A DNA stretch of 63,997 bases, counting the filler, from Rhizaria sp. SCN 62-66 (lineage: Eukaryota), in the NCBI GenBank assembly GCA_001724265.1. It is 5 parts of 5 records of this genome, joined end to end, with 100 filler letters (N's around TTAATTAATTAA, not from the genome) between each part and the next. Parts side by side here need not be neighbours in the genome. Positions count along the whole stretch, not along the records: positions 56,851 to 63,997 come from MEDY01000605.1; 4 more parts are not named here. One strand, 5' to 3'. Below, in pieces: positions 1 through 63,997 of this stretch (the first letter of the stretch is position 1; each line of letters opens with the position of its first letter). The position numbers were made by a program, and so were the translations under genes. The notes beneath the pieces were generated by a model. The model saw only the letters and a list, made by a program, of their open reading frames with translations, had not been told where the DNA came from and searched no databases.

Positions 1-95
1 AGGCCAGCCTTGGAGGAGCGGGACTGAGCCTTGGTGGCGGACTTAGCCTTGCCGCGGCCGGACTTGCCGCCCTTACCAGAAGCAGAGGTAGACAT
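1..95 (-). CDS. H2A: Histone H2A, 5' part (runs off the window start)
   Basis: Not in the ORF track. The reverse strand from ATG at 95 reads MSTSASGKGGKSGRGKAKSATKAQSRSSKAG(L), a Lys/Gly-rich tail followed by the H2A signature SRSSKAGL. Confidence 0.93.
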   Translation of the reverse strand, partial: MSTSASGKGGKSGRGKAKSATKAQSRSSKAG

Positions 96-691
96 CTTTT
101 GTGAAGAAGATTACAAAGTACGAGACTTTGGGTTTTCGGCAGTCAAAAATCGGAAAAATCATGTGGTCTCTGCCAGGGTTATTAACACCCTCCCGACACT
201 TCGCCACCCTCACGACTGCCAGCTTTTTCCATTTCCTAAGCAGGCTTAACTTTAAACACCACAAATTTGTTTGAGGAAAGAGTAATGCTCAATACGCATT
301 AAATCCTACAGTCGGAGCTTTAAATGAACATTTAATTGCTCGCTATGCTTCGCGGCTATATTTTTTATATTCTTTCTTAGTGTCATCGTTGTGCCTTTGG
401 GGCTCACTTAGCACCAGTTGGAAAGTGACGCGGTTCGCCTTCATCCAAGTAATTACAGCAGTGTAATCCAGTGTAATCCAGAAGTGTCATCCAAAAAAGT
501 GAGTACATGAAAGACTCTGATATAACAGTGTATTGGACGTCAATGTTGTCAAAACTGTTGTATTGCAGCAAACATGTTGCTCGCGCGTTTATATATCTTA
601 TTTGATATGTCTTACTTTTCTTCTCTTTTGCGTGCTTATTTCCTCTTTGTAGCTCCGATGCAGTGGCTAGAAGGTCTATGGTCTGGCTCTG

Positions 692-2307
692 ATGAGCCGT
701 GTAAATAAAGATGGCGACAATTGCGCGGACACTAACTGTGCAAAGCACAAAGTTCAGATGTGCCCCTACTTTCGCAAGTTTGCGTGCGAAGCGAGGAATC
801 CTTCATCCGCAACGTGTGCCCTACGCCACAATCAGCCCGCCAGGTCGACAGGAACCGGAAATGCACCCGCGCCCGCGAACAACAGCAACAGCAGCACCGA
901 CAAGGTTGCCAGCAACAGCAACACCGAAGGTAGCAACAAAGGCAACACCAACAGCAACAGCAACAACAACAACAACAACAAGAGCAGTGGCGCTGGCGCC
1001 GGCGCTGGCACTGACAAGAACAGTGGCGCCGCTGCGGAGGTTCACCGCAAGTGCGTTGCTCTGTGCGACAACGCAACCAAGCACCACATCAAGCTCTACA
1101 CGCTGATCCCCGGCGAGGTGGACGCTTTATTTCCCACCAACGCCGCGCGCGAGCGCTTCGAGCGCAAGTATCGCTGCACGATCGTGCTCGACGCATCGGG
1201 CGTCCAACTACGCGCGCCCGAGGCCGGCACCGTGGCGGCTGATGCGCTGTTTGCATTCGAAAAGCTGCGCGAAGATGTACGCCGGCGCACGCTTACCGAG
1301 GTGCGTCAGTTCAGTTTTGACGGCAACGTCTCTCTCCTCTGCGGCGCCGGTCTGGAAGTCCGCGACATCCTGTGCTACGGCGAAACTGCAACGGTGACTG
1401 TGTCTGTTGAATGCGCGCCAGGACGGGACGAGTTCGAGGATGATGAGGCGTTTCGCACCGCCTTTCTTCCTGGTGGCCACAGCGAATTGGCGCCGAGCAT
1501 CTCGTAACTGCCTGCCCTGCGTCATCCTGCAACTCAAGCAGAACGGCTGCCAGTGCTGCGCTTTCGAGTGCGGGAAGAAGCTGCCGCTGCGCAGCATTCC
1601 GATCGCTGATTTTGGCGACGGCGAGTTTGTCGCCATGCTGCGGTGGGCGCGCGACGCCTACCTGCTCAAAAACAACACCTCCTTTGTCAAGTGCTCGACA
1701 ACACACTGCCCCGAAATTCAGCGCAATCCGCCTGTCGTCGCTGGCGGCCTCAAGCAGTTCACTTGTCGGACGTGCAAGAAGACGCAGCCTGTCGGCGGCA
1801 GCGCGACCGACGGCGCTGATGCCGAGAAACTCAACGCCGAGCTGCCGACTGCGGTGCGCAACTAACTGCAGGGCACCTGTCCGAACCCAAACTGCCGAGT
1901 CATAGTGTAGGATAGGAACAACTATGCGGCTGTGGAATGTGGCTGATGTAACAACAACTTCTGCGGTGTGTGCACGAAGTACTACACTCTGATGGCGACG
2001 CACATAGCACGTGTGGAACTGCTCTGAAAACCGCGCGAAACACACTTTTATCTCCGAATCCCTTAAGGCCGAACTGCGCCTTAAGCGGCGCTTGGCGCGC
2101 GTGCTCACGGTGCTCGATGCCGCTCCGGAGCGCGCGGCCTGCGAGGTCGCGCTGTTGTTGGCTGAAGACTCCATCAAGGTTCCTGCCAAGGAGACGAGTT
2201 TCATGACTGAGGAGGCCTTTGTCAGGCGTTACTTGCTCAAGGTCGAGGAAGCAAGGCTCTCAAGCAAGCTGTGCCCCATCGTCCGGCGCTACAAGAACAA
2301 CCCATGA
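692..2307 (+). pseudogene. Decayed CCCH-zinc-finger / RBR (RING-IBR-RING) E3 ligase-like gene
   Basis: ORF 692-1507 has a CCCH-like motif (CPYFRKFAC..C..H). A different frame then gives half a RING (CLPC...CCAFEC) and an IBR (FVKCSTTHC...FTCRTC). A RING2-like CPNPNC..*D..YAAVECG*CNNNFCGVC follows, broken by TAA 1863, TAG 1908 and TGA 1944, with further frameshifts near 1990-2010. Confidence 0.72.
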
Positions 2308-18400: not shown

Positions 18401-21400
18401 TTCATGTGAAGCCGCGTGACTCTGAGCTGAAGCCAAATGTCGCCGAAGTCAAGCCGGGGTCTCTGTGGGGATTCAACGTCAGCAAGACGCAGCAACGCAA
18501 GCTCAAGCACAAAACCAGCGATTTGAATAACACCGCTGTTCCTACTGATAACAGCAACGCTGCTGCGCTTCTTGACGCCGACGCCAACGCCGTTGTCGGC
18601 GCGGACGCCGTGCCGCTGCTCTATAACGCCACCGCGACCGCGGCCGTCGTCGAGGTGTTTGCCCACCTCGCTGCCGCGGCCACCACGAACAGCGGCTCGA
18701 ACGCCAGCTCTGCCAGCTCTGTCAGCACGAGCGCCGCGGCCTCGGCGGCCTTCGCGGCGACCGCGGCCGCCGTGGTGGCCGCCTTTCTCGCCGCCGCCCC
18801 GCGCCTGCGTCTGGCCCCCGCGTCCGCCTCGGCCGCCGCGCTCGCCCTTGCCAGCGCGAGCGCCGACGGCAACGACGGCAGCGGCGGCGGCGACAACATC
18901 GCCGGCGCGAGCAGTGCAGGCGCCGTCGCGCAGTCGATCGCGCAGCCCGCGGGCGCGTACGGCGCGCTCGACTACCCGGCGCAGTTCTTGCCCGTGCTGC
19001 TGCAGGCGCTGCCCTCGCTGCGCGCGCCGCTGCAACTCACTGTCACATACTTGCGCAACTTCGACCGCGCGCGCGCCGCCGCCGCGGCCGAGGCGGGCGC
19101 GAGGGCCGCGCGCAAGCAGCAACAGCTGCTGCAGGCGGCCTCGGCGGCGCAAGGCGGCGGCGGCGCGGGCAGCAAGAAGCAGCAACCGCTACAGCTTCAG
19201 CAGCAGCCCAAGGCGTCGGCGTTTGCGGCTGCTTTGTTCTCGAAGCCCGCGGCTGCACAACAGTCTGCGACGAGCAGCAAGAGCGGCAAGGCTGCTGAAA
19301 TCGTCAGTCTGAGCGACGACGACGACAAAGACGGCACGGTGACTCTCGCCGACGCGCCTGCGCAGCCACTGCCCACAGTGCGCGAATGTGAGCACTGCCG
19401 GCTCTCGGTCAGTCGCCCTGACAACGCGCTGCTGTCCTCGCTCGCCGACGCGCTCGCGGCGCGCCTCACGCCCCATAGTAAAGAGACGGGGGCGCGCGCT
19501 ATGCGGGAGCTTATGCGTGCCGCCGCGCCCGCAGCGGTCAACGCGAAGGGCTACAACTCCTCAAAGGCTAAGTGCATCAACCCCCAATGCCCTCAGTACA
19601 ACAGCGACAGTGCCTCTGACGCTAGGACTGCAGCCGCCGCTGTTGCTGCTGCCGAGGCCGAGGCCGAGTCCGAGGCGTGCTACGCGCGCTGGGTGGCCTC
19701 TGTCACGGCTCCGGTCACCTCGCTGATTCTGCTCGGCCCTTCGGGCTGCGGTAAGTCGGCGCTGGCGGCCACAGCGGCCGCGCTGGCGGGCGGCAGCGCG
19801 CTGGAGCTGGGACCCGACGCGCGCCGCAGCGGCCGCGACGTCGCCGCGGTGTTCGATGACGCCTCGCAGTCGCGTCGGGTCACCGTCGGCGCGGCCCTCG
19901 CCGCTGCTGGCGGCGCCGCGGGCGGCGGCGCGGGGTTAGGGCTGGGGCTGGTCGCGGTGAGCGGCAGCGGCTCCAGCTCGAGCTCGAGCGCGGGCGGCGC
20001 TGGTTTGGACTCGTTTGACCCGTTCGCCGAGCTCAACACCGCCTTCAGCAGTAGCAGCACAGGCGCCAAGAGCAGCAAGAGCAGCGCGAGTGCGAGTGCC
20101 GCTGCCGGCAGTGACAAGGGCAAGAAAGCTGCCCCTGCCACTGCTAAGGGAGCTAAGGGATCTAAGGGTGGCCGTGCTGCTGCGAGCGCAAACGCCGCCA
20201 ATAGTGCGGCTCATGCGTTTCATAAGATGTTCAAGACCGCTCCTGTTAGTACGACTGAAAGCACGGCGGCGACCTCGACTGCCGCTAACGATAGCGATGA
20301 GGATGATGATTTGAAGTCTAAGTCGAAGGGCTCCAAGCCTAAGAGCTCTCCAGCAAAGTCTAAGGCATCCTCGTCAAAGTCCAAGTCGAAGGCGGTCAAG
20401 AGTCGCCGCGTGCTTGCCTCCGAGTCGGACTCCGGCTCCAACTCCGGCTCCGGCTCGGCGAGTGTGGGTGAAGACAGCGCTAGCGATGACGCTGAAGTCG
20501 ACACGATTGACGACAGTGCAAGTGTCAACGACGGCTCCGGCAGCGACTTCATCGAGCTCAGCAGCGACGAGGACGACGGCGCCGGCCGCAGCGGCAGCGC
20601 TGTCCGTGGCGGCCGCGGTGGCCGTGGCGGGCGCAGCCGCGGCAGGCCCAAAGGCAGCACCAACAAGAAGCCCGCCAACGCTGGCCCGAACGGCCGCGGT
20701 CGTGGCCGTGGCCGCGGCCGCGGTCGCGAGCGCAGCGCGATCGACGACGCCAAGGCGATCACTCTCTCCGGCAGCGGTGACGACGACGACGACGACGATG
20801 ACGACGTTGTCGCTCTCGATGACCCTGCAGGCTCAAGCTCCAGCTCCAGCGCCGCGGCAGCGCCCGTGACCCCGCCGCCGCGCCGCCTCTCGCAGACTCC
20901 GTCGCTGTCGCAGCAAAGCGGGCCGCCCTCGGTGGTGCGCCGCAGCGCGCGCCGGCCCGCGGTCGCGTCGCCAGCGACCTATGCCGACACTGCCGACAGC
21001 AGCGGCAGCAGCGGCGGCGAGGGCAGCGGCAGCGAGGGCGGCGGCAACAACGTCGGCAGCGACGGCGACGCGCTGCCGCAGCAGCAACGCCAGCGCCGCC
21101 GCACCGCCGCGAGCTCGAGCAAGAGCAGGATCAACGCTAACGACAGCGAGGGCAGGCGTGGCAAGCGCGCGAATCACAAGAGCGCCGGTCTCGACGACGC
21201 CAGTCCCGCCGACAGCGCGATCACGCTCGACGACACGCCCCTCCGCGGCAGCGGCGGCGGCGTCGATGGGACATGCGTCGCGCAGCTCGCGCCCACCGCG
21301 GCCGCGGCCAGCACCCTCTCGCACCCTTTCGCGTCGCCCTTCGCCCCCGGCCCCGGCGTCAGCGCTGCAGGCGCTGGCGGCGCGGGCGTGGCCGCGAAGC

Positions 21401-24400
21401 CGGCGCCGCGGCCGGTGCCGCCGCCGGCGAGCGCGCTGCCTTCGCTGACGCTCTCGGCCGCGGCCGCCGCGCCGTCACCACTGGCGGGCAGCGTGCTGCA
21501 CCTGGACAGCGTGGACGTGACGCACGGCGACGACGCCGGGCTGCCGCGCGCGGTCGCCGCGCTCATGGCCGCCACGCGCCGCCCGCTGCTGCTGTCCTGC
21601 TCCGCGCTGCCGCCCTATCTGGCCGACGCCGCGCCCGTGCCCGCGATGGCGCTGCGGGGCTTCCCCTTCGCGGCCGACTCGCGCGCCGCCGCCTCCGCCG
21701 CCGCGGCCGCCAACACGACCAGCGCCGGCGGCGGCGCGGGCGCGGGCGCGGGCCCCGGCGCCGGCTATTTCTCCAGCGGCGGCGGCAACTCCGCGGCTGC
21801 TCCGGACGCGGTCGGCGCTCGCACTGCCGGTGCTGCTGCCGCCGCCGCTGCCCCCTTTGGCGCCGCGGTCGGCGGCGACGGCGCAATCGCGGGCTCCGTG
21901 GCGGGCGCGCACGTGCTGCCGCTGGCCGGCGCGGGCGAGTGGGAGCTGGTCCTCGCGCTTCTCGTGCTCACGCTCCTCGAAACCGCCGTCGCCGTCGACC
22001 GCACCCGCAACGACAGCGCACGGACCGACAACAACGCGTTCAACGGCCTCAGCGCCGTGGTCCTGACCCCTGAGCGCGCGGCGGCGCTGGCACGCTTCAC
22101 GACGGGGCTGTTGGCCTTCGTGCGCGCCGCGCAGTGCGGGCCCGGCGGCGGCGGCGCCAGCGCAGGCAGCAGCAGCGGCGGCAGCGGCGGCGCCGGCAGC
22201 GGCGGCGACGTGCGCGCCGTGCTGCTGTCGGCGCAGGCCGCGATGCCCACGCTGTCGCAGCAGCTCACGGGCATTCTGTTCTCGCAGTCGTTGTCGCAGT
22301 ACGGGGTCAGCGGTGTGGACACGGTCGACGTGAAGCTGCGCACGGCGGCGCTCACAGTCACGCGCTCGCTGCCGCCCAACACCGCAGCCGCCTCTGCTGC
22401 CGCGGCTGCTGCGGCGGCGGACGCCAGCGCGAGTGCGAATGCGAGCGCGAGCGCGGCGGCGAGTCTGGCTGCAGACGCAATGGGCAGTGCTGTCACGCCC
22501 GCTCTCGTCGCCGTCTCCACCGCGAGCATCGCCAGTGCGGACACCGCTATCGGCGCCAACAGCGGCGCTTGGCTCGGCGCGGGTGGCATCAGCAGTGCGA
22601 GCGTGGCGGCCGCCGCCGCAGCGCTCGTCGCGCCGGACCTGCTGCTGCCCTCTGACGCCACTGGCGCGAACAACGAGGCTGTGACGCTGCTGACGGGCCG
22701 TACGCAGCGGCTGGGGCTGCCGTTCACCCCCGTGTGGCCCAAACTGCCCGGCTCCGGCTCCGATTCAGACTCCGGCTCCGACGGCAACGACAACAACAGC
22801 AGCAGTAGGGCGAAGGCCGGTTTGCAGGGCGGCCTCGGTGCGTACTACGGCGGCGCCGGGATCCGCGGCTATGATATCGACAGCGACGACGACGACGATG
22901 GCTACGGCGGCTACGGCGGCCGGGGCCGCGGCAAGCGCGCCGACCCCAAGGTCAAGAAGGGCAAGGGCAAAGACAGCGACGACGACGCTGCTGCCGCTGC
23001 TATCGACGACGCTCCCAAGAGGGGCAGGGGCCGGCCGCCTGCTGCCAGCAAGCGCCGCCTCGCCGACTCAAGCCCCAGCTCAAGCTCGAGCTCGAGCAGC
23101 TCGAGTGGCAGCGACGGCGACGACGTAGCGGTCACTGCCGCCAGTGCGAGCGTCAAGCCTACTGCGAGCGCGAAGAGTGCGAAGACCCCCGTGTTCGCGT
23201 CCGCGTCGGCCTTCGCGCGCGGGTGCCTGGGCGGCCGCAGCGACGCCGCGCTGGCCGCGGCCTCGCGCCCCGCCGCCGCAGTCGCCGCCGCCGTCGAGGG
23301 CGCGTTGGTGACCGTGGCTGTGGATCTGAACGACAGGCGCAGCCGCCGCAGGGCTGGCGCGAACGCCAACAGCGATGAGAGCGAGAGCGAGAGTGACAGT
23401 GAGCTCTTCGAGTGCGACACCGAGACCGCGGCCTCTGTCACCACAAACACCCACAACGGTGATGCGAACGCCTCGAATGCCGTCGGTCGCCTTGTCTGCA
23501 AGGCCGACTCGAACCCCCTGTGGGCGCTGCTGGGCGCCGGACAGGGCCTGCCGCGCGCGCTCGCCCGCCTCTTCACTGTGCCGACGCCGCTGTCCGCTCC
23601 TGGCTCCGGACGCCGGCTGCCCCTCTCGCGGTTGCTGCGCGCGCTGTGCTCAGTCGCCGAGGTCGTCGACGTCGTCGGCGACAACGTGCTGCCGCAGGTC
23701 GCCGCCATCCGCGCGAACGCCAGCCTCGCCCGCGCGGGTGCTGAGAATGTCAGCGCGCTGCAGCGGTGGGGCCGGCGCTCGTTCGCGCACCCTTACACCG
23801 CTAAGGGCGCTCTCACGGCCAGGTCTAAGGGTGTGTACCCTTTCAGCGAGCGCCTGGCTCTGCTGCCCCCCGCCACCGCCACCGCAGCCGCGACGGCGGC
23901 CTCGATCGCGCGCGCCCGGGCGCTCGCTCTCGTAGACCGCTGCGGCCGCTGCGACGGCGACGGCGACGGCGACTGCCAGTGCGTGGGCGGCTGCGGCGTG
24001 GTGACGGTGAGCCAGGCCAGCGACTGTGTGCGCTTTGCGAGTGACCGTGAGCGCAGGCGCGCGCGGCTCGAGGCCGAGAAGCAGGCGGCACTAGCCGCGA
24101 TGTTCGGCGGCAACGCTGCCGCGGACAATCGCACCGCTAAGGCTGGCAAGAGCAGCGGCCGGAAAGCCGCGATGGCTGACGACGACGGCGATATCATCAA
24201 CGAAGATGAGTGTGAAGAGAGCAAGGCCGGCAACGACAACGGTGGCGACGCTAGCGCGGACGCGAAGCAAGAGTCCGCTTCTGAGGCCTCTTCTACTGTC
24301 GCTGGGCCCGCTGCTGCGACTCTTTTCTCTCTCTCGAACCCTTTGCTGTCGGGCTCAGCTGCCCTCGCCGCCGCGGCCAAGGCCCAGCTCCAGCTCTACT

Positions 24401-25516
24401 CCGGGGCTCAGACCGAGTCCGGCGCTAGCGCTGACGCAGCGGGCGCTGGGCTCGGCCCCGGCCGTCTCGGCGCTGGCCTGCCCCGCAGCGTGACTGTGTC
24501 CGCTGCCGCCGCGGTGCTGCTGCAAGCCGTGCACGCGCTGCCCTCGCACCTGGGCCTCGCGGAGCCGCTCACTGCGTCCGACCCCGCGCTCGCGGCGCGC
24601 AGCGGCGCCGGGGCCAAGAGCGAGAGCGGCAAGAGCAAGAGCCCCGCGGAGTGTCCGTCGCAATTGCAGCCTCAGCCCCAGCCCCAGTCACCGTCCGCGC
24701 AGCTGTCGCGGCCGGTGCTGGCGGTGCACGGCGAGCGCTGGGTGCTGACCGACAGCTGGGCCGGCCGCGCGCGCGTCTCGGGCGCCCGCCTGCGGCCCGC
24801 GCTGACCACGGCACTCGGCGCGGCGGCCGCGGCGGCGGCGCTGGGGCCTCAGGAGGCCGCCGCACTCGCGCTCGCGGCTGCCAAGGCCAACGCCAGCGCC
24901 AACATCAGCACCAGCACTTCTGCGGCGACACAAGTCACCGACGGCAACGGCACCTCGGTCGCGAGCGACGGCGCGGGCACCGTCACGCACCGCGCGGTCT
25001 TGACTCTCGCCGCCACGCGCGCGCTCTCCGGGGCGCGCGCGCTCCGCCAGGCGCACTGCGCGAGCCGCGGCAACAGCGCCGCCACGCCCGCGGCCGCGCT
25101 GGCCGCCGCGGCCGCCGCCCTCAGCGACAAGAACGGCGGCGGCGGCGCGGGTGCGCTGGGGGGGCTGGCGGGCCAGACCTGCGACGAGCTGGGCCGGCCC
25201 GTGGCCACTAACCGGGGCTGCGCGAGCTGCGGAGCGGCCAGGCCCAGCGGCAGCAGCGGTCTCAGCAACGGCGACGGCGACGGCATCGCTGTCGCGGCGG
25301 GCGCCGGCGCGCTGGGCGCTGACGCGGTGCTGGAGCCCCTCGTGGCGGCCGCGCGGGCGCACTCCGAGACTGTGCTCGCAGCCTCCGTCGCCACTGCCGC
25401 CGCCGCTGCTGCTGCCGTGAGCGCGAGCAGTGACTCTACCGTCGCCGTGAAGAGTGAAAGCACGGACGCTGACGCCAGCTCGAGCGCAACCGGTGCCAAG
25501 GCCGAGCCCGACGCTG

Positions 25517-25551
<35 letters not shown>

Positions 25552-27681
25552 TCGAGCGCTGCTAGTGCCGCTGCCAACAGGGATTACTCCGACAGCAACG
25601 ACATGCTGCCTTGCGACCTCGCGTCGCGCCTCTCGGCCGCCCCCGCGGGCTCTAAGGCCAAGGCCGGCGCCAGTGCCAGTGCTGTGGCTGCTGCTGGCGG
25701 TGTGACCGCGTCCGCTACCGCGAGGGCGGCCGCTCTCGCCGCCTCGTACCCTTGGTGGGACGGGAGTGACCCCCTCACTCACGCCATGGCTGACGCAACC
25801 CCAAGCTCCGGCTCCTGCTCGACTGGCGCCAGTGCGTTGGCGGTTGCGCTGACCGCAGCCGACGCCGCCGCCGCGGCCGCGAGCGAGGAGTGCCTCTGCG
25901 GCGCCCACGCCCGCGGGCTCGTCGCCGCCGTGCGCCAAGCGCTCGTGCTCTTCGATTACGATGATGACTGTGAGCAGTATGAGCCAGGCCCCACGCACAC
26001 AGCGTACCCGGCCCGGTGCGGCCGGTCGCTGCGCGCTGCGCTGGGCCGCGCCCGCTGGGTGCCCGTGAACGCGGTCGAGCACACAAAGGCCTGGGCCGAG
26101 TACCTTGCGGAGGGCCTCGGGCTCACCGTCAGCGGCGGCAATAGCAATCGCGGCAGCGACGGGAACGCTAGCAGTTTTAGCAGCGGCAATGGCAGGGGCG
26201 CTAAGCGCGCGCTCGAGCAGGACCTAGAGCAGGAGCAGAAGTCGCTGCCGTGCAAGACTGAGAGTGGCGCTAGCGCTGCTGATGATGATAGTGACCTGCT
26301 TGAAGTCAAGCGCTCTCGTCTGTCTCTCAACGCGAGCGACGCAAGTGAAGCGATCGTCAAAATTGAGGCGCCTTCGCAATTCCATGACAACAACGGCATC
26401 GACAGCCTCTTTATTATCAACACGAGTGCTATCGACACCGATGTTGACGTGGACCTCACTGTGTCGTGGCTGCAGTCCCGCGCGCCCCACATCATCAATG
26501 AGGGCGACCCTTACACCGCTAAGTGCACTGCAGTCAAGAGCGACACCAAGAGCATCACTAAGGTTGAGTCATCAGAGACTGAGTCAAACGCCGCCGCGGC
26601 CTTGGCGGCCACTGCGGCGTCGCTGGCCGCCGCCGCCGACGCGGCCGGACTGGCCTCGCTCGACGCGCTGGCCGCACTCACCGAGTGCCTGTCGCTGGCC
26701 AGCGCGCTGGAGGACTCCACCGCGCTGCTGGTCGCTTCGCATGGCGGCCTCGTCTACCCCGGCCTCTCGCGCGCCAGGGCCAGCGCGCGCGCCGCGGGCA
26801 CGTCGGCCGCCGCGCCGCTGCGCCCTGCCGTCCCCGTCTTGCTGCGCCATAGTACCGAGGCGGGCGCTGAGGCCGAGGGCGGCTGGGCGTGCCAGTCGGG
26901 CTGGGGTGCCGAAACCAAGCCCACCTGGTTCCTGCCTGCCACAGGTGCAACCGCCGGCGCAAGCTCTGACGCTAATTCTAACGAGGAGGACCGCAACGAC
27001 TGTCGGCGCTCGGCGCTGGCGCGCGCCTACCACGTACACCGCGCGATGTCCGCCGTGCCCTGCGCAGGCTCCCGCGGCGGCGGCGGCCCCGGCGCGCGCG
27101 CCGCCGCGGCCTTCTGCGGCGGCACGCTCGGCGAAACGGGCTCGACGCTCTGCGCGGGCGGCGCCGGCACGGGCGCGGCGCCGGCCTGGGTCTGGACGCC
27201 GCCACAACCGCAGCGGCTGCACTCGATCCAGGGCAGCAACGGCAGCGCCGTTTCATCGCTGCTGCAGTCTACCTTAAGCTCTGGCACGGCCGCATCCTCC
27301 CCGGTCCCCGCTGCCCACGGCTCCTCTGCTGCCGCCGCCGCCGCCCATTGCCAGAGCCAGAGCCACTCTCTGTTGGGCGCCTCCGTGTCGGTCACGCAGT
27401 CGGTGTTTCCCCTCGGCGACAGCGCCGATGACTACGAGGTCGGCTCCTACGTCGCCCTCGCTGAGGCCTCCGCCGCCGCAGCCGCCGCCACCGCCGCCGC
27501 AGCCGCCGCGGCCGCCGGCGGGGCTGCGCGTGTCTCTGCCGCCGCGGCCGCGCTCGGCGCTGCCCACTCCAACAGCAGCAACAGCAGTAGCAGCAGCAGT
27601 GCTGTGCCGTCGCTTCTGACGCCCTCAGCCCTCGCCTCCGGCCCCAGCTCCAGCAGCAGCAGCAGCAGCAGCAGCAGTGCC

Positions 27682-27719
<38 letters not shown>

Positions 27720-28541
27720 GGCAGGGGCCAGCAGCGAAGGCAGCGCCGAGGGCGGCGCGAGCTACGGCGGCGACGAGGCCCTCTTCGAGACGACGGTGGC
27801 CTTCGACGCCGCGACGGCGCTCGCACGCGAGGCCGCGGCGGCCGTGGCGGCCCTCGCGGCGGCCGCGGCGGCGCGGCAGTGCGCGCATGCGGAGGCCGTC
27901 GTCGCCGCCGCCGTCGCTGCGGCTGACAAAGCGACTGCTGCCGGCGAGAACAAGCGCGGCGACCGCAGCAACGACTCTGCTCCTGATGGTGTTCGCGCTG
28001 CTTGTGACCGTGCATGGTACTCGCATGCTGATATCACGGCCGTGCTCGACGCTGTTGCCACCTCTGAATACTCCGCGACCGCTGCAGTCAAGAGCTCCGC
28101 CCCCAGTGCCTCTGTGAGCTTCTATGTCGCGGCCCCCGCCCCGTCGCGCGCGCGCCGCAGCCACGACTCGGCCGCGGCCCTCGCGCAGCTCGTCCTGGAC
28201 GCCAGCGCCGGCGCCAGCAGCGGGAGCCGCAGCGCGGCGTGCGCTGCGCTGGGTCCCGTTGCGGGCGCGGGGCTGGCGGGCGACTGCGCCGCGCTGCTGG
28301 CTGCCGTTGCGGGCGCGGACGCGCGCGCGCGCAGGGAGACTGCCGCGGCCAACGCAGCCGCCGCGGAGGCTTTTGCGCTCTCGCAGCAGCAGCAGCAGCA
28401 GCAGGGCGGCGGCGGCGGCGGCGGCGCTGAGGAGGCCGACGTCTACGACAGCGAATGCGACGACGATGACGATGACGACTACGGCTACGGCGGCAGGCAG
28501 CAGCAGAAGCAGAAGCAGCAGCGCGCCGCCGCCGCTGCCGC
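15463..28541 (+). CDS. ATAD5: ATAD5/ELG1 (RFC-like PCNA unloader large subunit), greatly expanded, 3'-partial
   Basis: Walker A LILLGPSGCGKS, then LELGPDARRSGRDVAAVFDDASQSRRV (compare ELG1 EVNASSQRSG..L.EATQSH.V). Walker-B region LHLDSVDVTHGDDAGLPRAVAALMAATRRPLLLSC (compare EEVD...DAGF..A...M.TTKRP). FPAVAHV motif also present. Single open frame of more than 4300 codons up to the gap. Confidence 0.82.
27652..27728 (+). repeat. Coding microsatellites (AGC)n and (GCGGGC)n, encoding poly-Ser and (GA)n
   Basis: Directly visible; typical of many such tracts in exons across the window. Confidence 0.9.
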
Positions 28542-28641: not shown

Positions 28642-28890
28642 GGGCATCGTCGCTGCCGGGGCCGGCATTAATGCAGCGGGGGCGGGCATCGTCGCCGCGG
28701 GCGCGGGCATCGTCGCTGCCGGGGCCGGCATCAATGCAGCTGGGGCGGGCATCGTCGCCGCGGGCGCGGGTTGCATCGCGGCCGGCGCGGGCATTGTTGC
28801 CGCGGGGGCCGGCGCAAGCGCGGCGGCGGCGGGCATATTTGCGGCGGCAGCTGGCGTCATCGCTGCAGCAGCGGGCATGTTCGCAGCGGC
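28642..28890 (-). repeat. 21-bp coding minisatellite with a 63-bp higher-order unit
   Basis: 28642-28704 and 28705-28767 are near-identical 63-mers (MPAPAAT-MPAPAAL-MPAPAAT). The repeat decays toward 28890. Confidence 0.9.
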
Positions 28891-30102
28891 AGCAGGGGCG
28901 CCCGCCGCCGCAGCGTAGTTGGCGCTGGCGCCGTCGGCCATGATAGGCGACGCAGGCGCGTACCACATGCCGCCCTCGTAAGTCCCGCGCGCGCTGTTGG
29001 CAGTGCCCGGGCCTCGTGTGTATCGAATCGCGTGGGGGTCGGTCACGCGGCGAAAGGGCGCGACGTCGAAGCTCGAGTCCATGCTGTATGTGCTGCCCCA
29101 AGACGGCGAGCCCGCCGCGCCCGCAGGCGGGATGACGCGGCCCGCCGACCACGAGTACGCGCCGCGGCTGGAACCCGTGCTTGCGCTGTTGCGCGGGATG
29201 CGCACGCTCGCGGTCGCGGGGACCGAAGACGACGAATCTAGCGCGGCCAAGGTCGTCGCAGGCGTGCCGGCGGCTGCGGGCAGCGCGCTTGCGCTCGCAC
29301 TCTCGGCGTGAGCTACGTCATTGTTTACGCCAGCGTTGGTAGGGTTGTCAGCCGCGTCGGGCTTTTCGGCACTAAGCTTGTCAGTGTCAGCGTTACTGGC
29401 ACGATTCGCTGCAGCACTGGTTGCAGGGTTGTTACCCTGGTTGACAAACGTTGTGGTCGCCATCTCAGTCATCCCGATGATCTTGCCCTTAGCGGCAATG
29501 CTGGCCTTGTCAGCCGGGTTTGCCTCTGTCGCAGTCGTCACGATCGGCGTTGCGACCTCGACGGAGCCTGGGTTGACGGCCTGCAGCGCGCTGAACATCT
29601 CCGTGATTATCTCCTTTTCGCGGGCCTCGTTGCGCGGGAACGTGGCGACGGCGAAATAGCGGTACTCGACGGGCTGCAGCAGCAACTCGGTGCTCTTCTC
29701 GCGGTCACGCTCGCGGTCACGAGCGCGGGCGCGGGCGAGAGCGCTGCCTTCGCGCACTGCACTTGTCCGTGAGCTAGATCGCGGACGGCGGGCGCGAGCG
29801 GCCAGCTTGTCCTTGTCGCTGCTGTTCGCGGCGGCCTCGAGCTGGTCGTATAGGTTCTGGCGCTTAATCAGAGCCGCTGTGACCGAGCTCAGCACGGGCC
29901 GCGAGGATGAGATCGCGGCGGTGCGGCGTGCGGCCTCTTGGCGCGCGCGGAAACGCGGGGGAAGCCGAGGTGCGGAGGATTCGAGCGCTGTTGTAGTCGT
30001 TGTTGCAGGAGGAGTTCCTCTTGTTGCTGCTGCGGTCGCTGCGGCAGAAACGGCCAATAGGGAGGCGAGGAAGAAGAGGATTAGAAAGACGGATAGCTGC
30101 AT
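28642..30102 (-). CDS. Secreted protein with a C-terminal MPAPAAT/L tandem repeat, 3'-partial
   Basis: Signal peptide MQLSVFLILFFLASLLAVSAA from ATG 30102; the frame is open to the gap. Confidence 0.8.
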
Positions 30103-42236: not shown

Positions 42237-42667
42237 ATGGGCAAGGTACGTCGTAATCCTTTCTGCTATTTTCACCTTTTTACATTCCTGCGCGCGTTGC
42301 TCGGGCACACTGCGGTGTGTAATCCCCCTTCTTGGTCCGCCGAGCTAAGGTTGCACCCCGATCCCAGTCACCGCGTCCACTCCCGCGCGCTGTGCGGCTC
42401 CCCACGCGGGTGTTTACGCCTATCACCTCCACAAACATCTCCCTTCCCTCTCTCACCATATCCCGCCTCTCTCTTTTCCTTTCCTTGCGCGTCCTTTTTC
42501 CCCCACGCACTGTCCCATGCCCCGACTGCCTGCCCCCCGTCTGCCCCCCTGTCGTCTCCTCGCCCGTGTTTAGGACTACCGTAACAAGAGCAAGACCGCT
42601 CAGCGCCCCAAGATGCTTTGGGTGCGTGAGCGCCTCGACCGCGAGCTCCAGCTCGTCGGCAAGTACG
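42237..42667 (+). CDS. RPS9: 40S ribosomal protein S9 (uS4), 5' part; join(42237..42245,42574..42667)
   Basis: MGK|DYRNKSKTAQRPKMLWVRERLDRELQLVGKYG matches the uS4 N-terminus (YRN.SKT...P.....ERLD.ELKL.G.YG). The intron is AAG|GTACGT..TTTAG, and the gene is cut by the gap. Confidence 0.88.
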
Positions 42668-55420: not shown

Positions 55421-56750
55421 TCACTCAGCTTCGCCCACGTTGCGTGCACGCACCTGTGACTGCCTGGTCTGCTTATTCTTGCTCACAAAGAACAGCTTAT
55501 CGCAGTACTCATCGGCCTTGATGCGGTCGATAAAGTCCTTGTCGTGCGTGATTAGAATCATCTGGAACCCGCGTTGCGTGCGCCGCTTCGCCAGCAGCCG
55601 CGACAACGCGGTTGCGAGGTTGCGCGCGTTGGCTTTATCCAGGTTCGTCGTCGGTTCGTCCAGCGCCAGCACGTTGCACTTAGAGCAAAAGACCTCGGCC
55701 AGTGCGAGCCTGATAAGAAGGCACACCAGCACCTTCTGCCCCGCGCTGCAGCGGCCGCGCATCTCGAGCTCCTGCCCGTCGCGCACCATGATGACTCGGT
55801 AGTGAGTCTTCTTCCGCCCCAGTCCGGCCCCCAGCGCGCCCGCGCCCGCGCTCGCACTCGCGCTCGAGCTGCTTGCACTGGCCGCGGGCGCGCTGTCGTC
55901 GGGAGCCTCGCCGTAGATCTTGACGGTCTCGATGTCGGTGCCCGCGTACGTCTCCTTCCAGTGCTCGGCGAGGACCTTGTTCACCTCGTTCAGCTTCTCG
56001 CTGTGAAACATCATGATCGCGCCATCCAACGCGTGCGCGTAACGGACCAGGTCCTTGTGCGCGCTGCCCAGGGCAACGCGTTCCGCGACCGCGCGGCGGA
56101 GGTCCAGAAAGCTGCTGGCGTACTCCGGCTGCGCGAGCTTGCGCTCGTGCTCTGCGGCCACGTCCAAAAGCTTGCCGGCGCGCGCGCGAGCCTCGGCAGC
56201 GTCGTCGGCCAGCTTGCGCTCCAGACCGGCCACCGCGTCCCAGTCCACGATGACGTTGCTGAACCGCGCGGGGTCGTTCTCGCCATCGCACATCGCGCCC
56301 GTTCCCGCACCCGTGCTCGCGGTGGCAGTCGGCTTCTTACGGAATAGGCCCAGGATCTCACGGCCACAGGGAACCCCAAGCATCGCCTCGATCACCGCAG
56401 CGTTGCTGCCCTCAGCATTCGGGTCCTTCTCCGCCTCGGCCACGGCGGCCGCGGCCTCGGCAGCCCGCGCGGCCGCCGCGGCCGCCTCGCTGCGCGCGCG
56501 CAGCCAGTGTCCCGCGCCTGACGCCGCAAGGGCCTCATGCGCGCTCTCGCGGCCCGCGGCGGACTTGACCTCGGCCGCGCCGGCGCAACGCTCGTGCAGC
56601 TGCTCGGCCGTGGCCAGCTCGGCGCGCGCGCTCTTCAGCGCCGCCCGGGACGTACCGGCTACGCGCCAGCGCCGCCTGCGCTCGCGTGCCGCGGAGACTA
56701 GGTCCGTGGCCGCGGCAACGAAGCTCTGCAGCAGCGCGGCGGGCGCGGCG
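55421..56750 (-). CDS. RAD50: DNA repair protein RAD50, C-terminal part (5'-partial at the gap)
   Basis: Motifs LDGAIMMFHSEKLNEVN..W..TY.G.DI, signature MRGRCSAGQKVL, Walker B LALDEPTTNLD and H-loop ILITHD. It ends in TGA. Confidence 0.95.
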
Positions 56751-56850: not shown

Positions 56851-57965
56851 TTTGATCAGACCGTCATGGCGTTGTTTGACGGTACGAACACGTGCGGGGC
56901 GGACACGCGGATCAGGCACTACACTTTCACTCTACGCCAGTGATGTACAGACAACACATGACGGGACTTAATGTGAATAGAGGGTATATGCTTGCGTATG
57001 TCTGCTTGTGTATGTCATGTTTTGTTTTTGTTTTGATTGGAGTTTTCTTGGTTCTTGAAATACATTCGTGTTAGACGGTGACGGTTTTCTTTCATATTTT
57101 TTTTAACGACAGGTGGTGCCGGAACAAAATCCGTGTATTGTTTGAAAGGAACACTCTGATTTAACTAAAAAACCAGATAAGTTAGCCAGCGGACATGACC
57201 AAAATGTCGAGTCCGAGGCATGCACAGGTATCACATCAGCGTCCAACGTGCATATGAAAGATGGGGGAAAAAAACGTGCATAAGGTTCATAATAAAAAAC
57301 AACGGTAGATTCGAAAAAAGATTTTGTAGTCCATATACACACTGTGTTTAACTGTTGATTATGACAACATGTCTTCGATATTAATAGTCGCGAGTACATG
57401 TGCATGAGCTCCAACACGTCAATCGCGTGCTGATACTCAAATGTAGTTTTGTGCATTATTAAGGAGCCGAAGCAGAGTAATAATCAGCGACACAGGTAAG
57501 GAAAATATGATCGTATCTGCTCAAGATGAGCGCGTATTAATCAATGGAAAGTGTCGTCGTTTTGCGTTACAACGGTTAAATGAGTTCATACAGAAAAATA
57601 CTGACAGAGAAAATTATCGTTCTGCTTCTCACCATGAATTACATCATGAATTGAGGGGACAGACTGCTGTGTAGTGCATGTTAATGTTCTAATATGTCGT
57701 GGTCTTAAGAGAATTTTTAACTCTTGCCGTAGTCGTGTCTAATGAGTTTGGTTTTGACGGATGTCACGACCAGATCAAGGGACACGTGACGTCGTCATGA
57801 TAACCGATCGCAGAAGCAGAATCGGTAACGATGGCCTTAGCAAGATCCATCTCGATGCGTGCTATACAATGGAAACAGCAATCGTGTTCAAAATCAGGAA
57901 GCATTATGCAGAGCAGGGTACACGTGTAAGTGTTCCACCGAGTACTTAAACGATAACCGCCATCT

Positions 57966-60900
57966 CTACATACCACCCCTCGTCGTCGCCGGAGCGCCGT
58001 TGGCCGCATTTGTCTGGCCGTGAACAGGGACGCCGTTATCAGTGCTGCTTGCGGACGAGTCGACGGCCACCTTGTTCGAGCGAGCGAAACAGAGACACTT
58101 CATGGCATAAGCGATAAAGATGCAGAGTGCAATCAGAAAAGCGGCGCCAATCGGAACAACGATTGCGACAATCAACGTGGTGTCATCATTACTGCCACTA
58201 TTGCCACCGGTTCCGCTGCCATCAGCTTCAGTGTAGTCGTTAGTGCCAAATGACGCTGGCAACTCGTCCCCGTCCTCTGCATTAACATCATTTACAGTCA
58301 TTCCAGCTGCACTGTTGAGCCAGCTGTTATCGCCACCAGCATCCGCAAGGCTGTTGCCGCCTGCAATCAAGTCAGCCTTGAGCGCGTTAACCGCGACATA
58401 CAGGCCGCCCATGTTCGCGCCCGCCGCCGCCGCCGCGAGCGTTGTGAAGTGCGCAGTGATGTCGAAGTTATGCCGCGTTGATGTCGTGTTGTCGAGTAAG
58501 ACCGTGCCGAGGACATTCTGAGGTCCCGCAACCCACTGAGTGGAGCAAGCACTCGAGCTCGTAATGTCGAGCTCAAACTTGAACTGCTTAGCGGTGGCGT
58601 TGAGGCTGACAAGGCGTGCTGCAGTAGTCTTTGTGCCCATTGCCATGACAGTAGCCATTGCAGCGCCCTGAGTCGCAATCCATGTCTTAAAATTGGCGCG
58701 CAGAGCCTCCGTAACCGCGGTGTTTGCAGCCGTAACCCAGTGGGTCGTGTTTTTATCCACGTGCCCGACAAGACCGAGCGTAATGAACCGACACAGACAC
58801 TCGCTCTCCTCGGTGAAGCCAGCCTCGCACATGCACTTGTCACAGTCAGCGCTAGCGACGGCCTGGTTGTAGCAGCTGCGCTGGCACGCACTGCAGACCG
58901 CGCCGCCCCAGGCGCCCGTCGCGGGGCACGTACACGCATCGTTGCAGTCGACATCGCCGTCTGGGGATACAGTGCCTGAGTAAAAGCCCTCATGTTGACA
59001 GGTGCCGCTGGGTTCGCCACAGCCAGCCTCTTCGGCCGGAGTGCGGCAGTTATCGCCGGTAAACAGCGGAATACCCTCACCATTAGTGCGGCAGATGCAC
59101 GTGGCGCGCTGCGTGTTTGCATCAACGTTGCAGAAAGACGCTGTCGCGACACTGCAGCCAATGGTAGCACAGGGCGGGACAGAGCAGAGCGCGCCGGACC
59201 AATCCCCTTTGCACTCGCACTGCTGTGTGTCAGTGTTGCATGAGCCATGCGCGCCGCACTTAGAATAACACGCGGCCTGAAGGGTGAAGCTGTCGCTCTC
59301 GTTGGTGACTGCAGTGGAGTACTGTACGTGAAGGGTGTACGCTTCTGTGGTCCTCTTAAGCGTGCTTGGCAACGTAAAGTTAAACACAAAGCGCTCACCT
59401 TGCTCGTAAAAGCTCAACGCGCTCGGCTTGACGCGGCCTAGTGTGACTTTGGTAATTGTGTTGGTGGGCGCCACCGGCTTCAAAGTCAAAGTGAGCCAGC
59501 GTGGGACTGTCTCTAAGCTTGCAAGAAAAGCTGTCATATCTGCATCGGTGCTCAACATTGGGAACGAAATCCAAACATTAAGCACATCATCAACCTGATA
59601 GAAATCGACAAATTCGACTGAGAATGGATTCGCGCAATCAGCGCCAAACCAGTTGTCTGCACAGACGCAGTCGCCGGCAGCATCGCTGTACTGGCGCCCC
59701 ACGGCGTCGCCGAGGGCGCGCGCGACGCACTGACCGCCGTTCTTGCACTGCATAGGGCTCGCATACGTGCACTGCGTGTAGCTTGCGGCGGGAGCGGGCA
59801 GTGACGCGCAGAGGAAAGGCAAGACCGTTACCGGTGGCAGCTCAATACCCGTGCCAGTTAAGGTCGCCAAACATGCGTACTTAATATATGAGCTCTGGCG
59901 GCACGCTGTGGGGAATAAAGGGCAAGACGTCACGTTAACCCGCGACCAGCTGTACGTGGTGGTCGCGCCGTCTTCCGGACACGCAGGTAACATGCACGAC
60001 GCCGTGGGCTGTTCGGCGTTATCGCCGCCAGTGCACAGCTTTGAGGGGACAGAGACTCCGGTTACTTTGTGGACGCAGATTGCGGGCGTAATGGCCAACG
60101 GACTCTGCGCCGTGTGATTGGTGTAGCAAGTTAACGCGGTCGTATTAACTGTGCAGCCGTCGTTGACAGTGGCGCGCGCCTCGCAGTCCGACGTCAAATC
60201 GGGACAGGTAGCCGTCGCGGCAGGCTTGGCGACGGCACTGCACTTAGAGTCAACCGCAGCCTGGCCGTTTACAACACAAATTACAACGTGGCGCGTGGTG
60301 CCGGTGCCAAGCGCGCAACCATCTTTGGGGCACGTGTTCTCGAAGACGACAGTGTTAGAGCAAAGCGTGCCGGATCCAAACTCGACGTTGTCTTGGGCAG
60401 CCCTATCAGGCGTCAGGCAGTGCCACGCGGGGTTCGCGCTACAGCCAGTGCTACTAGAGCATTTTTGCGAATTTGCCGGCGGCGGCGACACAACTGAGCA
60501 CGGAGACGTGTTGATATTTTCACGGTTATAACTCTGCGTGAAAGAAGGGTACGTATATGAAACGGCGTCGTCTTTGCCCACCATCGCACAGCGCACGGCA
60601 CGATGCGCAATGCCAGTGCCGCAGCTGCTGCTGCAGACAGCGTTGTTTAGACTAACGAGGGTTCTGGAGCACGGGCGCCAGGTCAGATTCTCATCGTCAA
60701 GTCCGTAGACGTCGTTCGCAAGGGCGCATTGCCACTCGTACCGATTGCACATAAATGAACCGCACTCACGCTCAAGCGCTGGCGCGTTTGCGACGCCCTG
60801 GCACTGCGTTGTACGCACGGTGCTTTTGCTGAAGGTTGGAGCCGTTATGTCAATGCAGAAGGTCTTGCGCGTCTGCGAGCCAAATCCGCATTTCTCAGCG

Positions 60901-63102
60901 TTACATGCGCTCCACGAATCTTCGCTGTTGCCATTAGTGTTGGTGCCGTTACATGGGAGCGGGGTTAACATTGCGAGTGGTGATAACGACTCGTATGTGG
61001 CCGTGGATTCCGCGTCAAGACACGTAAGTCCGCAGTTGGAATTGGGAATGCACGTGCTCGTCACAACAGGATACGGAACTAGATTTGGGGGACAAAATGC
61101 TTCTGCATCAAGCGTCACACTTGTGTTTGAAGCAAGGGAGCACGCCATACTGCTGTAGCTCACGGAGCTTGACTGCGCAGTGTCCTCACAACCGTCGGGG
61201 CAGGTGGCGTGCTTGGCGGCGCACACTTCACGGGGCTCGCCGGGCACTGAGGGTGGGCAGCGCCAGACACCGCAGCCCGACGTCACGGCAACGGGCGCAG
61301 CAAGGGGCGTTAGAAGGGAAAGACAAATGTCGTTGGTGTAGGCGATCGTGAATTTGGGCTGCGCCGTCTGCAGTGAAATGTCGGCGCAAGCCTGCTAGGG
61401 ATAGTACTGCGTGCCGCAGTTGTTGATAGGCTGTACCACCACACATTCACCCCAGGTTATGCCGTCATAGCATATGCGCTGCGGCGCAATAGTACCGCCG
61501 TTAAGGGTAATGTAGCCGGAGTACTGCAAAAGAGTGCTTAGCTGTGTGGGCAAGCCGGGAGACATCAGTGTGCTCACTGAGTGGAAAGTCATTGCGGCGT
61601 ACGCCTGCACGTGCAGCAGTCGATTGCGGCATGTATCGCGTTGGGGAAATAAGAAAGTATGATAAGAAAATTGTAAAACAACAATACGTAAGACCGCACG
61701 TGGATGTGACTTGAATTTAATAATTGTGACGTACTGCGGAGGCGGGATACTTGAGTGAAAACAACGTGTGGTCAACCTCGTAATCGCGGTGACAGGTGCA
61801 CGCGTCGGCCGTAATGTTAAGGTTCGGAAACGCACTGTTAACGTCGGAAACAATGCCAGCACACGCCGTCGTAAAGCCATCTAAGGCGGACGGGAAGTAC
61901 TGGCGCATGACCTACCAGATCGTAAGGTACTCAATGTTGTTGCTCTGTAACCGCCACTTTGTCTCCGGGCAGAGAAATAGCGCCGCCGCGCCGTCCGTGG
62001 CGAGCTTGGACGAGTCGTAGACCGTCGGCGCCACGACAGCAACCGTCCCAGAGTTGAAATCCGCTGTCTTACGCAATCCTGTGCACGTGAGCGCAAAGCG
62101 CCTGCGGTCACCGAATTGGACAGTGTTTATCGCGTCCAAAAACGCGGCCATGTTGCTCGAGTTGGAGATTGTGCCGGTATACGCACCGTCGTTTCCTTCC
62201 AGTGTGAGCAGCAGCGGGGACATCTCCGTCGTCGTGGGGAAGCCAGCGTCTAGGCTGAACATAATATAACACGTGGGCGCGCCACCTGCAAGCAGCGTGC
62301 GTGGGATGTTGAAGTTGATTGCGAAAGCGCCAAAGGTGAACGACAGTGGGCGGTAGTAAGTGGTCCGATAGACCAACGCAACGTCGTCGTCAGCCGTGCC
62401 AGCGCCAGTAAACGCGATATCCGCGGACGAGTCAGGGAACAGGTTATGATCGTTCTTTGCCTTGTTGCCGAAGCTCGCCAGTGGCAGTGGCAACAGGACC
62501 TGGATGTCGTTGACCAGGACATCGCCAGAAGAGTACTTCACGACGCGCAGCGAAAAGTACCCAGAAGGCTTGGCGGCGGCGACGGTGAGGGGCGCAGCGA
62601 CGGGGATCCAAATCGTCATCTTCTTAGATGACCCAAGGCCAATCAAGTTGATGTACACATTAGGAGATCCTGACTGGGGACGGAAGAATTTGGTTGGGTA
62701 AAGCGTCTCAGTGTCGAAGGCGTCATCGAAGGCGTAGTAGGCAATGACGTCCTCGTTCATGACATAGTAAATATGGTCAAGTGATACAAAGAGTTGAAAA
62801 AACTGCGAATTGTCTTTTAACAAATGGTCTGAGTTGGCGGTAGGCTCAATAGTCAGCTCTACGAAAGCCGTGTTGCCTTGCACGCTTGTGAGCGTATAGC
62901 CTGCAACGCCGACGGTTGAGACGAGCGATGACGTGAATGTGAGGTTCGCAAGCGTCGGGCCAAAGGCAGCCGCCAGAAAGACGCTTTGCAGCAGGAACAC
63001 CAGCACAAACGCAAACGCAGCTACAGCGGAGCTACGGAAAGTGCGCAAAGATGGGATTGCGGCGGTGGGGTGTGGCCGCATCTGCGGATAGGGGCGATGC
63101 AT
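57966..63102 (-). CDS. Type-I membrane protein with TSP1 and EGF-like repeats, about 1670 aa; join(63102..61735,61604..57966), with in-frame TAG at 61912 and 61395
   Basis: N-terminal hydrophobic leader (AVAAFAFVLVFLLQSVFLAAA). TSP1 motifs WSACNAEKCGFGSQTRKTFC and CSSSCGTGIAHRAVRC. EGF motifs CKNGGQC..CVCADNWFGADC and CGAHGSC..CECKGDWSGALC. TM segment LIVAIVVPIGAAFLIALCIFIAY. One 130-nt GTACGT..CAG intron. The 3' end is ambiguous (TAG 57966, TGA 57894, or an intron at GTATGT). Confidence 0.8.
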
Positions 63103-63945
63103 GTGAAAAACAACAGCTGTTTCTTGCGAAGAACCTTAGAACAAAGAACAACGTCAATATAGCGCGCGGCAGAAAAAAAGCGAGATGCGCAAATAAAAGT
63201 GCAGTTCATGTGAAAATGTGCATTATGAGATGAGTGATTGAACGTGTAAAGCACACATGTGTTTAAACATTTGACTGCATAGCAAGCGTGGTAACGTGGA
63301 GAGACACTAAATGCCTCGATGGACCACGGATTACCGACAAAATACACTTTCGCATTGATATTTCACACGATTTGGCAGATAAAAATACACATTTGACGTA
63401 TGCAGTCCAATGTTACGTCTGTGGGTGGCTGGTAAACGTAATCATTACACTCTCAAGGTGTCAAATCTCCCTAACTCTGGAGATCTTGCGGAGAGAAAAA
63501 TCTTGGCCAAATGAAGGGGTCCGGAGGGTACGACTATAACTATATGTTAAATTTAATAGCTGATGCATCTATGACATTCGAAATTCCTTCAAACAAGCGC
63601 CTTGTTTTGGCCGCATAAGGGTCTATACAAAATCGCTCGTCTCAGCATCGCCTTTGCCGTCAAATTTTGACGGGCACCCCAGTTTTCAAATTTCGCCCAA
63701 TCAAAATTTGCCTAATTTTACCTAATTTTGATATTTTGAGAACCCCAGCAGAGTACAGTCCCGTCCGTAAACTCTTTCCGTGTGCCAGACACAGGCGGAT
63801 TGGCTCATCTCCAGGATTGATGTTCCCATCCTTAAATGTGAAAAAAAGTTAATATCGTTCGTATTTATTTTATTTTGGTGTGAATACTAAAATCAACAAA
63901 ATTGTATGAAGAGGTCGATATACCCTGGTTCATGTCTTCGTAGAC

Positions 63946-63997
63946 ATGACCTCTGAGTTCTCTCGGCCGCCGCAGCCTCTGTGGCACCCCCAGCCTC
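63946..63997 (+). CDS. Possible start of a gene running off the window
   Basis: ATG at an AT-to-GC transition, reading MTSEFSRPPQPLWHPQP; too short to verify. Confidence 0.25.
   Translation, partial: MTSEFSRPPQPLWHPQP

Follow-up and report, generated by a model that had tools for sequence, protein, structure and literature searches.

Reassignment of UAG with UAA kept as a stop codon has precedent in only a few lineages (PMC5304391, PMC11687900). In the nuclear code of Iotanema spirale, UAG means Gln, while UAA and UGA remain stops; UAG accounts for about 8% of the Gln codons and is placed at conserved alignment columns (PMC5304391). The eRF1 protein of Iotanema carries a change in the GTS motif, and in Euthynema, which uses the standard code, only 4% of the genes end in UAG (PMC9161772). 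The rhizarian exLh (Sainouroidea) reads UAG as Leu, with 384 UAGs in 71 genes (PMC5304391), and in the ciliate cases UAG makes up 6.5-31.8% of the synonymous codons (PMC11687900).

Here we analysed a window of 63,997 nucleotides from Rhizaria sp. SCN 62-66 (assembly GCA_001724265.1), made of five contig pieces joined by N spacers. The locus under study is read on the minus strand of the last piece (56851-63997) and contains two in-frame TAGs, named TAG1 and TAG2 below. We think that this organism, like Iotanema, retains UAA as a stop and decodes UAG as an amino acid, which is probably Gln; we give this reading a probability of about 0.55. This figure, and the gradings of the other readings, are rough judgements and not computed values.

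The frame that opens with the ATG runs to TAG1, continues for 64 further codons and then meets a TAA. A second minus-strand frame, open from 61880, crosses TAG2 and reaches another TAG 1,142 codons further on; downstream of TAG2 it encodes TSP1-/EGF-like repeats and a membrane helix. The intron links both frames in phase 0, and the joined model has 1,668 codons (Table 1). The original prediction had divided the locus, under the standard code, into four pieces, and we recovered all of them (61912-63102, with 396 aa from the ATG; 61717-61911; 61395-61604; 57966-61394). The two TAGs also stand on the minus strand in the contexts it had given (61914-61912 and 61397-61395), and the piece it described as 1106 aa long from a GTG has that GTG at 61286 and spans 1,142 aa from stop to stop.

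Table 1. Features of the locus under study and of the other segments with in-frame stops, in coordinates of the whole window.
Feature	Coordinates	Strand	Details
Start ATG (63102) and signal-peptide-like leader, residues 1-46	62965..63102	-	read from sequence
Exon 1, 456 codons, holds TAG1	61735..63102	-	
TAG1, in-frame, codon 397	61912..61914	-	context IEYLTIW*VMRQYF
130-nt GT-AG intron, phase 0, encloses in-frame TAA 61717-19	61605..61734	-	
Exon 2, 1,212 codons, holds TAG2, Cys-rich repeats and anchor	57969..61604	-	
TAG2, in-frame	61395..61397	-	context TQYYP*QACADI
TSP1-like repeat, best of two stretches	60747..60917	-	Pfam PF19030, E 0.00069, 20.3 bits, below curated cut-off of 23.8
EGF-like repeat	59634..59750	-	Pfam PF07974, E 0.0073, below cut-off
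EGF-like repeat	59178..59270	-	Pfam PF21700 and PF23106, E 0.016-0.017, below cut-off
Single transmembrane helix, then basic residues	58104..58175	-	read from translation
C-terminal end; window frame reaches TAG 57966-68, then TGA 57894-96	57894..57968	-	
cNMP-binding-domain gene, 2,462 codons, low-complexity; last exon ends with TAA	3352..10858	-	
In-frame TAGs of the cNMP gene	10812-14, 10749-51, 4233-35, 3939-41	-	no TAA or TGA
Coiled-coil ORF, cut by contig start; TAG 43027-29, then 76 open codons	42769..43257	+	
RBR/IBR-type E3 ligase pseudogene	671..2307	+	TAA, TAG, TGA and at least 2 frameshifts

The single canonical 130-nt intron of the original prediction agrees in length, GC and donor with 14 reference introns of the window, which were chosen by eye (116-328 nt; GC 0.28-0.43 in 13/14; donor GTACG in 10/14). 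Its ends are GTACGT..GCAG, the donor being the commonest local one, and its GC (0.41) lies in the range of the 13. In a second sequence type, described below, 94 letters replace 20 inside the intron, a length difference of 74 nt. The acceptor may instead be an in-frame one at 61524, and no spliced RNA was seen across 61734-61605.

We favour a single-gene model since the leader lies on one side and the anchor on the other, the intron is of variable length and the frame bias extends to both sides of the TAGs. The leader was called by eye from a basic n-region and a hydrophobic h-region, and the helix by eye from the translation. The relative P0121 retains the leader, with 23/25 identical positions in residues 26-50. 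Two separate genes were considered and rejected: about 125 nt separate the TAA from the next ATG, and the downstream piece has no leader. Thus, the locus is probably one two-exon gene for a type-I membrane or surface protein of about 1,670 residues. The presence of leader and membrane helix in one chain is predicted from the sequence and hinges on UAG decoding and on splicing. The single type-I membrane protein of the original prediction is therefore the best reading of the locus, with the decoding and the splicing as its inferred parts.

No named family can be assigned to the protein, since its Pfam matches are all below cut-off, the PDB gave no match and the Atlas gave no usable hit (under 0.9 or none). 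Exon 1 matched no Pfam family and has only two relatives, both short (P0121 and P0122). Rfam gave 0 matches, and the repeat search returned low-complexity runs and spacers only. A single-sequence AlphaFold model (pLDDT 36.5) was left out of the evidence. Upstream of the gene, the stretch 63543-63997 has a depth of about 30 and loose ends in X2 and X4, and is probably a repeated element.

Assembly error as the origin of the TAGs was rejected, as each of them is carried without differences by a contig of another study. TAG1 is spanned by record 23 of run X5 (61825-62123) and TAG2 by record 5 of run X2 (61208-61638), with 0 other letters in both cases, and these runs come from two studies distinct from that of the best holder, X1; the contig comparison leaves out X6 and X8-X11, which have small shares. 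On both flanks of both TAGs, the frame of the gene scores best in 3/3 settings of a Markov model trained partly on cores of the same gene, away from the TAGs. With a stricter model that had no part of this gene in its training, TAG1 was borderline and TAG2 failed.

Splicing could also excise the TAGs. The original prediction held that the nearest GT..AG pairs able to do so are 19 and 13 nt long and would shift the frame; these are indeed the nearest ones, but many longer, frame-preserving pairs would excise each TAG as well (for example 61915-61835, 81 nt, for TAG1; 61436-61395, 42 nt, or 61734-61395, 340 nt, for TAG2), and its case against splicing was to that extent incomplete. Moreover, 61734 looks like a real donor and TAG is the acceptor in 5/14 reference introns. 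However, the candidates all have a GC of 0.49-0.61, above that of the 13 reference introns, and their stretches score as coding in frame. The stretch at TAG1 is gapless and 2% divergent in the second sequence type, and two separate unusual events would be needed. We consider excision highly improbable.

Further information was obtained from the other genes of the window. Over 15,383 codons in 16 gene segments, which were built by hand and delimited by eye (not a blind count) and leave out the pseudogene at 671-2307, the in-frame stops are 7 TAG, 0 TAA and 0 TGA. Two of the TAGs belong to the locus under study, four to the cNMP gene and one to the coiled-coil ORF. Downstream of the two 3' TAGs, the frame of the cNMP gene goes on through a canonical intron to the last exon with its TAA, while the two 5' TAGs could sit in UTR or intron sequence. 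The TAG of the coiled-coil ORF may be a true stop, the frame support being mixed. No internal frameshift is found in the gene under study or in the cNMP gene (1,668 and 2,462 codons). No TAG occurs in ORFs of 4,359 and 2,350 codons. The ORF at 15463-28539 (plus strand), open over 4,359 codons or more, is Ala/Ser/Gly-rich, has no Pfam match and is cut by the contig end.

The intact gene ends (n=10) are 5 TAA, 5 TGA and 0 TAG, a weak result, with P between 0.02 and 0.20 for TAG shares of 33-15%, and the low share of UAG ends in Euthynema (4%; PMC9161772) goes with a standard code; the frame of the gene under study and the coiled-coil ORF can be read as TAG-ended. A blind scan of 420 open-flanked stops was also made. 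Stops whose two flanks scored best in frame, neither of them being clearly non-coding, were 3/110 TAG, 0/81 TAA and 0/229 TGA, and one of the three TAGs was rejected as an antisense false hit. Looser coding scans pass 4-6 TAG, and also 0-6 TAA and 4-6 TGA, mostly outside gene models. The RBR ligase pseudogene, whose contig also carries the cNMP gene, provides an internal control: decay here leaves mixed lesions. Its Pfam IBR match (E 0.00035, below cut-off) extends across a TAG and a TGA. Reassignment of all three stops was rejected, the sole gene with in-frame TAA and TGA being one that also has frameshifts.

As TAG-only interruptions recur in two other genes, they point to a genome-wide code rather than to readthrough confined to one gene, which is how the original prediction had described the locus. 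Programmed readthrough under the standard code would produce a secreted short protein and, rarely, a long one with the anchor. Secretion of the N-terminal part would be plausible, the conservation around TAG1 is unusual (2% divergence), and TAG2 is followed by CAG, like the leaky stop context UAG-CAR. However, two leaky stops in series would be expected to leave very little full-length protein, and the readthrough explanation does not account for the other TAG-bearing genes. The TAGs have no downstream motif in common and no stable structure 3' of them: the 120 nt after five TAGs gave z scores of -1.08, -1.04, -0.28, -1.54 and 0.03 against shuffles. The readthrough claim, in the form it was made, is not supported, and we rank such a mechanism slightly below splicing, as very improbable. 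The question is better recast as one about the genetic code, in which a disabled gene copy stays alive as a less probable answer.

According to that answer, the code is standard and the gene, which encodes a fast-evolving surface protein, is present in the window as an allele or pseudogene that was disabled recently; it has two nonsense changes and has lost one base near the C-terminus. The cNMP gene would then be truncated at TAG 4233, in its low-complexity tail, and the coiled-coil ORF would end at its TAG. Evidence on this comes from a second sequence type, 2-12% divergent, that occurs alongside the window type in X2, X4 and X7; X5 contains almost only the window type. Over 56851-63997 the two types would be divergent haplotypes or sibling strains. 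The second-type pieces listed span 3,021/5,004 coding nt. Their net length change is 0 in 11/12 pieces, two of which contain compensating gaps, and +1 at the last codons of the twelfth, which leads to a TAA end. Of the indels, 11/12 of those listed (38 are further ones) fall outside the coding model.

The extra base of the second type lies behind 57971 and moves the end seven codons on, to a TAA, in X7, X2 and X4. The window type is without it, so that its last residues are altered and a TAG is placed before the seven-codon run to TAA, as a disabled copy might have it. In 58660-59162 there are 11 synonymous and 20 nonsynonymous changes among the 40 of 551 differences that are listed. The NG86 ratio is about 0.54 over about 500 nt, and comes closer to 1 when transitions are weighted; neutral transitions are expected to be about 33% synonymous. 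The original prediction had named neutral evolution as the mark of a pseudogene. The counts are indeed near neutral, as a disabled copy would have them, but the reading frame and the cysteines are retained: 0/31 listed changes fall on any of the 18 Cys codons. Around TAG1 (61686-62056) the two types are only 2% apart and have no gaps, versus 5-12% elsewhere in the gene, which would reflect a recombination tract or local constraint.

Other observations also speak for a disabled copy. A true pseudogene shares the contig of the cNMP gene, and of the nonsense codons that mutation would produce here TAG is the most frequent (51-59%), with P 0.26 for two TAGs out of two. P0122, which comes from a 952-nt contig, is unalignable right after TAG1 (its first residues, against 61888-61908), one X4 contig omits 188 nt of exon 1 (62624-62811), and the RNA-library contig over TAG1 is unspliced. 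The 188-nt skip begins where P0121 ends, but a clean deletion as the cause of that end was rejected, as it does not reproduce the ending. The identity of P0121 drops from 25/25 in residues 51-75 to 15/24 in residues 76-99, which fits a hypervariable stretch rather than a clean 188-nt deletion, and such a patchwork, as judged from the sequence, fits a variable surface protein. The X4 skip and the P0122 misalignment may come from copies that are broken, from hypervariable sequence or from artefacts in the contigs.

The distribution of TAG over the segments can be read in two ways. When the 16 segments are ranked by GC3, those with TAGs take the three lowest places, and TAG is missing from the 13 segments with GC3 above 0.70. 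This is expected of a rare codon but also of decaying genes; the clustering of the TAGs is not significant (P 0.10-0.24).

Against a disabled copy stands the kind of lesion found. Decay should add frameshifts as well as TAA and TGA, and neutral decay over the whole branch predicts 4-6.5 nonsense codons with only 51% TAG. However, the gene under study and the cNMP gene together have 4-6 TAGs and no internal lesion of another kind, and the cNMP frame runs on through its canonical intron to the last exon. Instead of frameshifts and all three stop types, we found only TAG and a one-base change in the last codons. A pseudogene of very recent origin might present the same picture. We regard the disabled copy as a serious possibility, though not the leading one. 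UAG as a sense codon is placed above it because TAG-only lesions without frameshifts in two long genes are hard to obtain by decay; it is not placed higher because reassignment is rare a priori and the UAG use is far below that of the known cases.

No relative spanning either TAG was found, and none of the TAGs could be assigned to a conserved position of an alignment. HMMER searches of 1.84 billion representatives gave 2 hits, neither across TAG1, and in the short-protein searches 0/321 and 1/366 candidates matched, with no TAG spanned. In the metagenome scans 0/45 and 1/477 stretches matched; the single one (L001) was rejected as a chance hit, since its long ORFs do not use the frame of the match. 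The viral scan gave 0/1 and the search for RAD50 in genome contigs 0/53. No TAG of an intact gene lies inside any Pfam match. Only one RNA-library contig covers TAG1 (X7 record 31); it is unspliced and may be DNA. X7 contigs reach 23/30 bins, including flanks outside the gene. Since those flanks are covered and record 31 is unspliced, X7 indicates neither transcription nor its absence.

Record 31 also bears on correction of UAG at the RNA level, by A-to-I editing, with the codon read as Trp. Editing of this type corrects premature stops in filamentous ascomycetes and would leave TAG-only interruptions, and record 31 carries one unlocated different letter. However, that record may itself be DNA, RAD50 from the window does not group with fungal rows, and Trp is a poor fit to the Gln/Glu-rich context of the cNMP TAGs. 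We consider editing the least probable of the explanations weighed here.

The original idea that TAG is read as sense is likely to be right: it is supported by the TAG-only interruptions and by the frame bias, and it lacks a TAG at a conserved column. In-frame UAG without UAA or UGA was found in otherwise intact genes, as a UAG-only code would have it. By analogy with the known cases, a tRNA with anticodon CUA would insert a residue at UAG throughout the genome, and the intron of the gene under study would be spliced out. The eRF1 protein would have lost or weakened its recognition of UAG while still reading UAA and UGA (compare PMC5304391 and PMC9161772). TAG would be a rare synonymous codon, limited to genes of weak codon bias. 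In our judgement the residue is more probably Gln, with Leu a distinctly weaker candidate; the cNMP TAGs stand in Gln-rich surroundings, and the common Gln codon CAG is one transition from TAG, both of which favour Gln. No tRNA gene was found within the window, nor an eRF1 gene among the ORFs scanned in it.

TAG would make up 1.4% of the Gln codons if read as Gln, or 0.6% of the Leu codons if read as Leu, and the widespread use of the described cases (6.5-32% of the synonymous codons) is not seen here. Such wide use characterises the described cases without strictly defining them, but at the level found here we do not count the organism as a proven UAG-reassigned member; it is a credible candidate, as yet unproven, for a new lineage in which UAG alone was reassigned. 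It is tempting to propose that we are looking at an early stop-to-sense stage, in which UAG no longer serves to terminate and a tRNA(CUA) decodes it, perhaps only in part, its use being limited so far to weakly constrained genes and to about 1% of the Gln codons. We offer this version tentatively, as an unlikely one, below the disabled copy. If true, this would offer a present-day example of a codon midway through reassignment, with UAA and UAG decoupled, and the lineage, which turns up repeatedly in bioreactors, could be sampled.

The genes of the window are eukaryotic, GC-rich and intron-bearing (RAD50, MMS19, a SET-domain gene, a DAO-family oxidoreductase and the cNMP-binding protein), and the shared intron donors and codon style suggest that the five pieces come from one species. 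Sequence of the window is present in 11/13 listed runs from 7 studies, with at least half of its words in 4 of the runs, and the run labels are bioreactor, wastewater, microbial fuel cell and activated sludge. The RAD50 C-terminus (55421-56750, minus strand) forms a very long branch and groups only with P0002 (100/100), at 54-56% identity, in a tree that used 33/120 hits and whose bootstrap is unsettled. Two contig-edge fragments were also observed, at 1-96 (minus strand) and 42237-42667 (plus strand), which from their translations we take to resemble histone H2A and a divergent ribosomal protein uS4, respectively. At 28642-28914, a 21-nt tandem repeat encodes a Pro/Ala/Met heptad in a secreted-looking protein at a contig end.

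If UAG is a sense codon here, this protist, which is GC-rich and has introns, would add an independent case to the known ones and provide another test of how eRF1 and tRNA separate UAG from UAA. The very low use of UAG could make the ambiguous-intermediate model directly testable. Databases would then hold the proteins of this organism in pieces; the Atlas entry is the N-terminal piece ending at TAG1. If instead the gene is a pseudogene, the finding is an ordinary one. No UAG-reassigned wastewater protist was found in the literature searched, which included few subscription papers.

As for the protein, type-I surface adhesins and receptors with TSP1/EGF repeats form a general class. The predicted product resembles this class in its leader, its Cys-rich TSP1-/EGF-like repeats, its one membrane helix and its short cytoplasmic tail, and differs from it in that the Pfam matches are all below curated cut-offs. 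As for the code, the window shares with the ciliate system the decoupling of UAG from UAA and the fact of being known from metagenome assemblies. However, UAG occurs in 78-91% of the genes there and in 3 of about 14 here, and the GC3 (0.63-0.92) and introns (116-328 nt) of the window are unlike those of ciliates. The likeness to exLh would lie in the reassignment of UAG alone and in its avoidance by genes of strong codon bias, and the organism of the window is also long-branched, whereas it has 7 UAGs in 16 segments and exLh has 384 in 71 genes. Iotanema places UAG at conserved columns and uses it for about 8% of its Gln codons, unlike the 1.4% and the lack of such placement here. Among the proteins of the window is one of the DAO family that resembles L-2-hydroxyglutarate dehydrogenase and has an N-terminus like a presequence, which would be a poor fit to an anaerobic fornicate such as Iotanema. 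As in Iotanema, only UAG interrupts frames, the ten intact genes scored end with UAA or UGA, and UAG would be a minor Gln codon.
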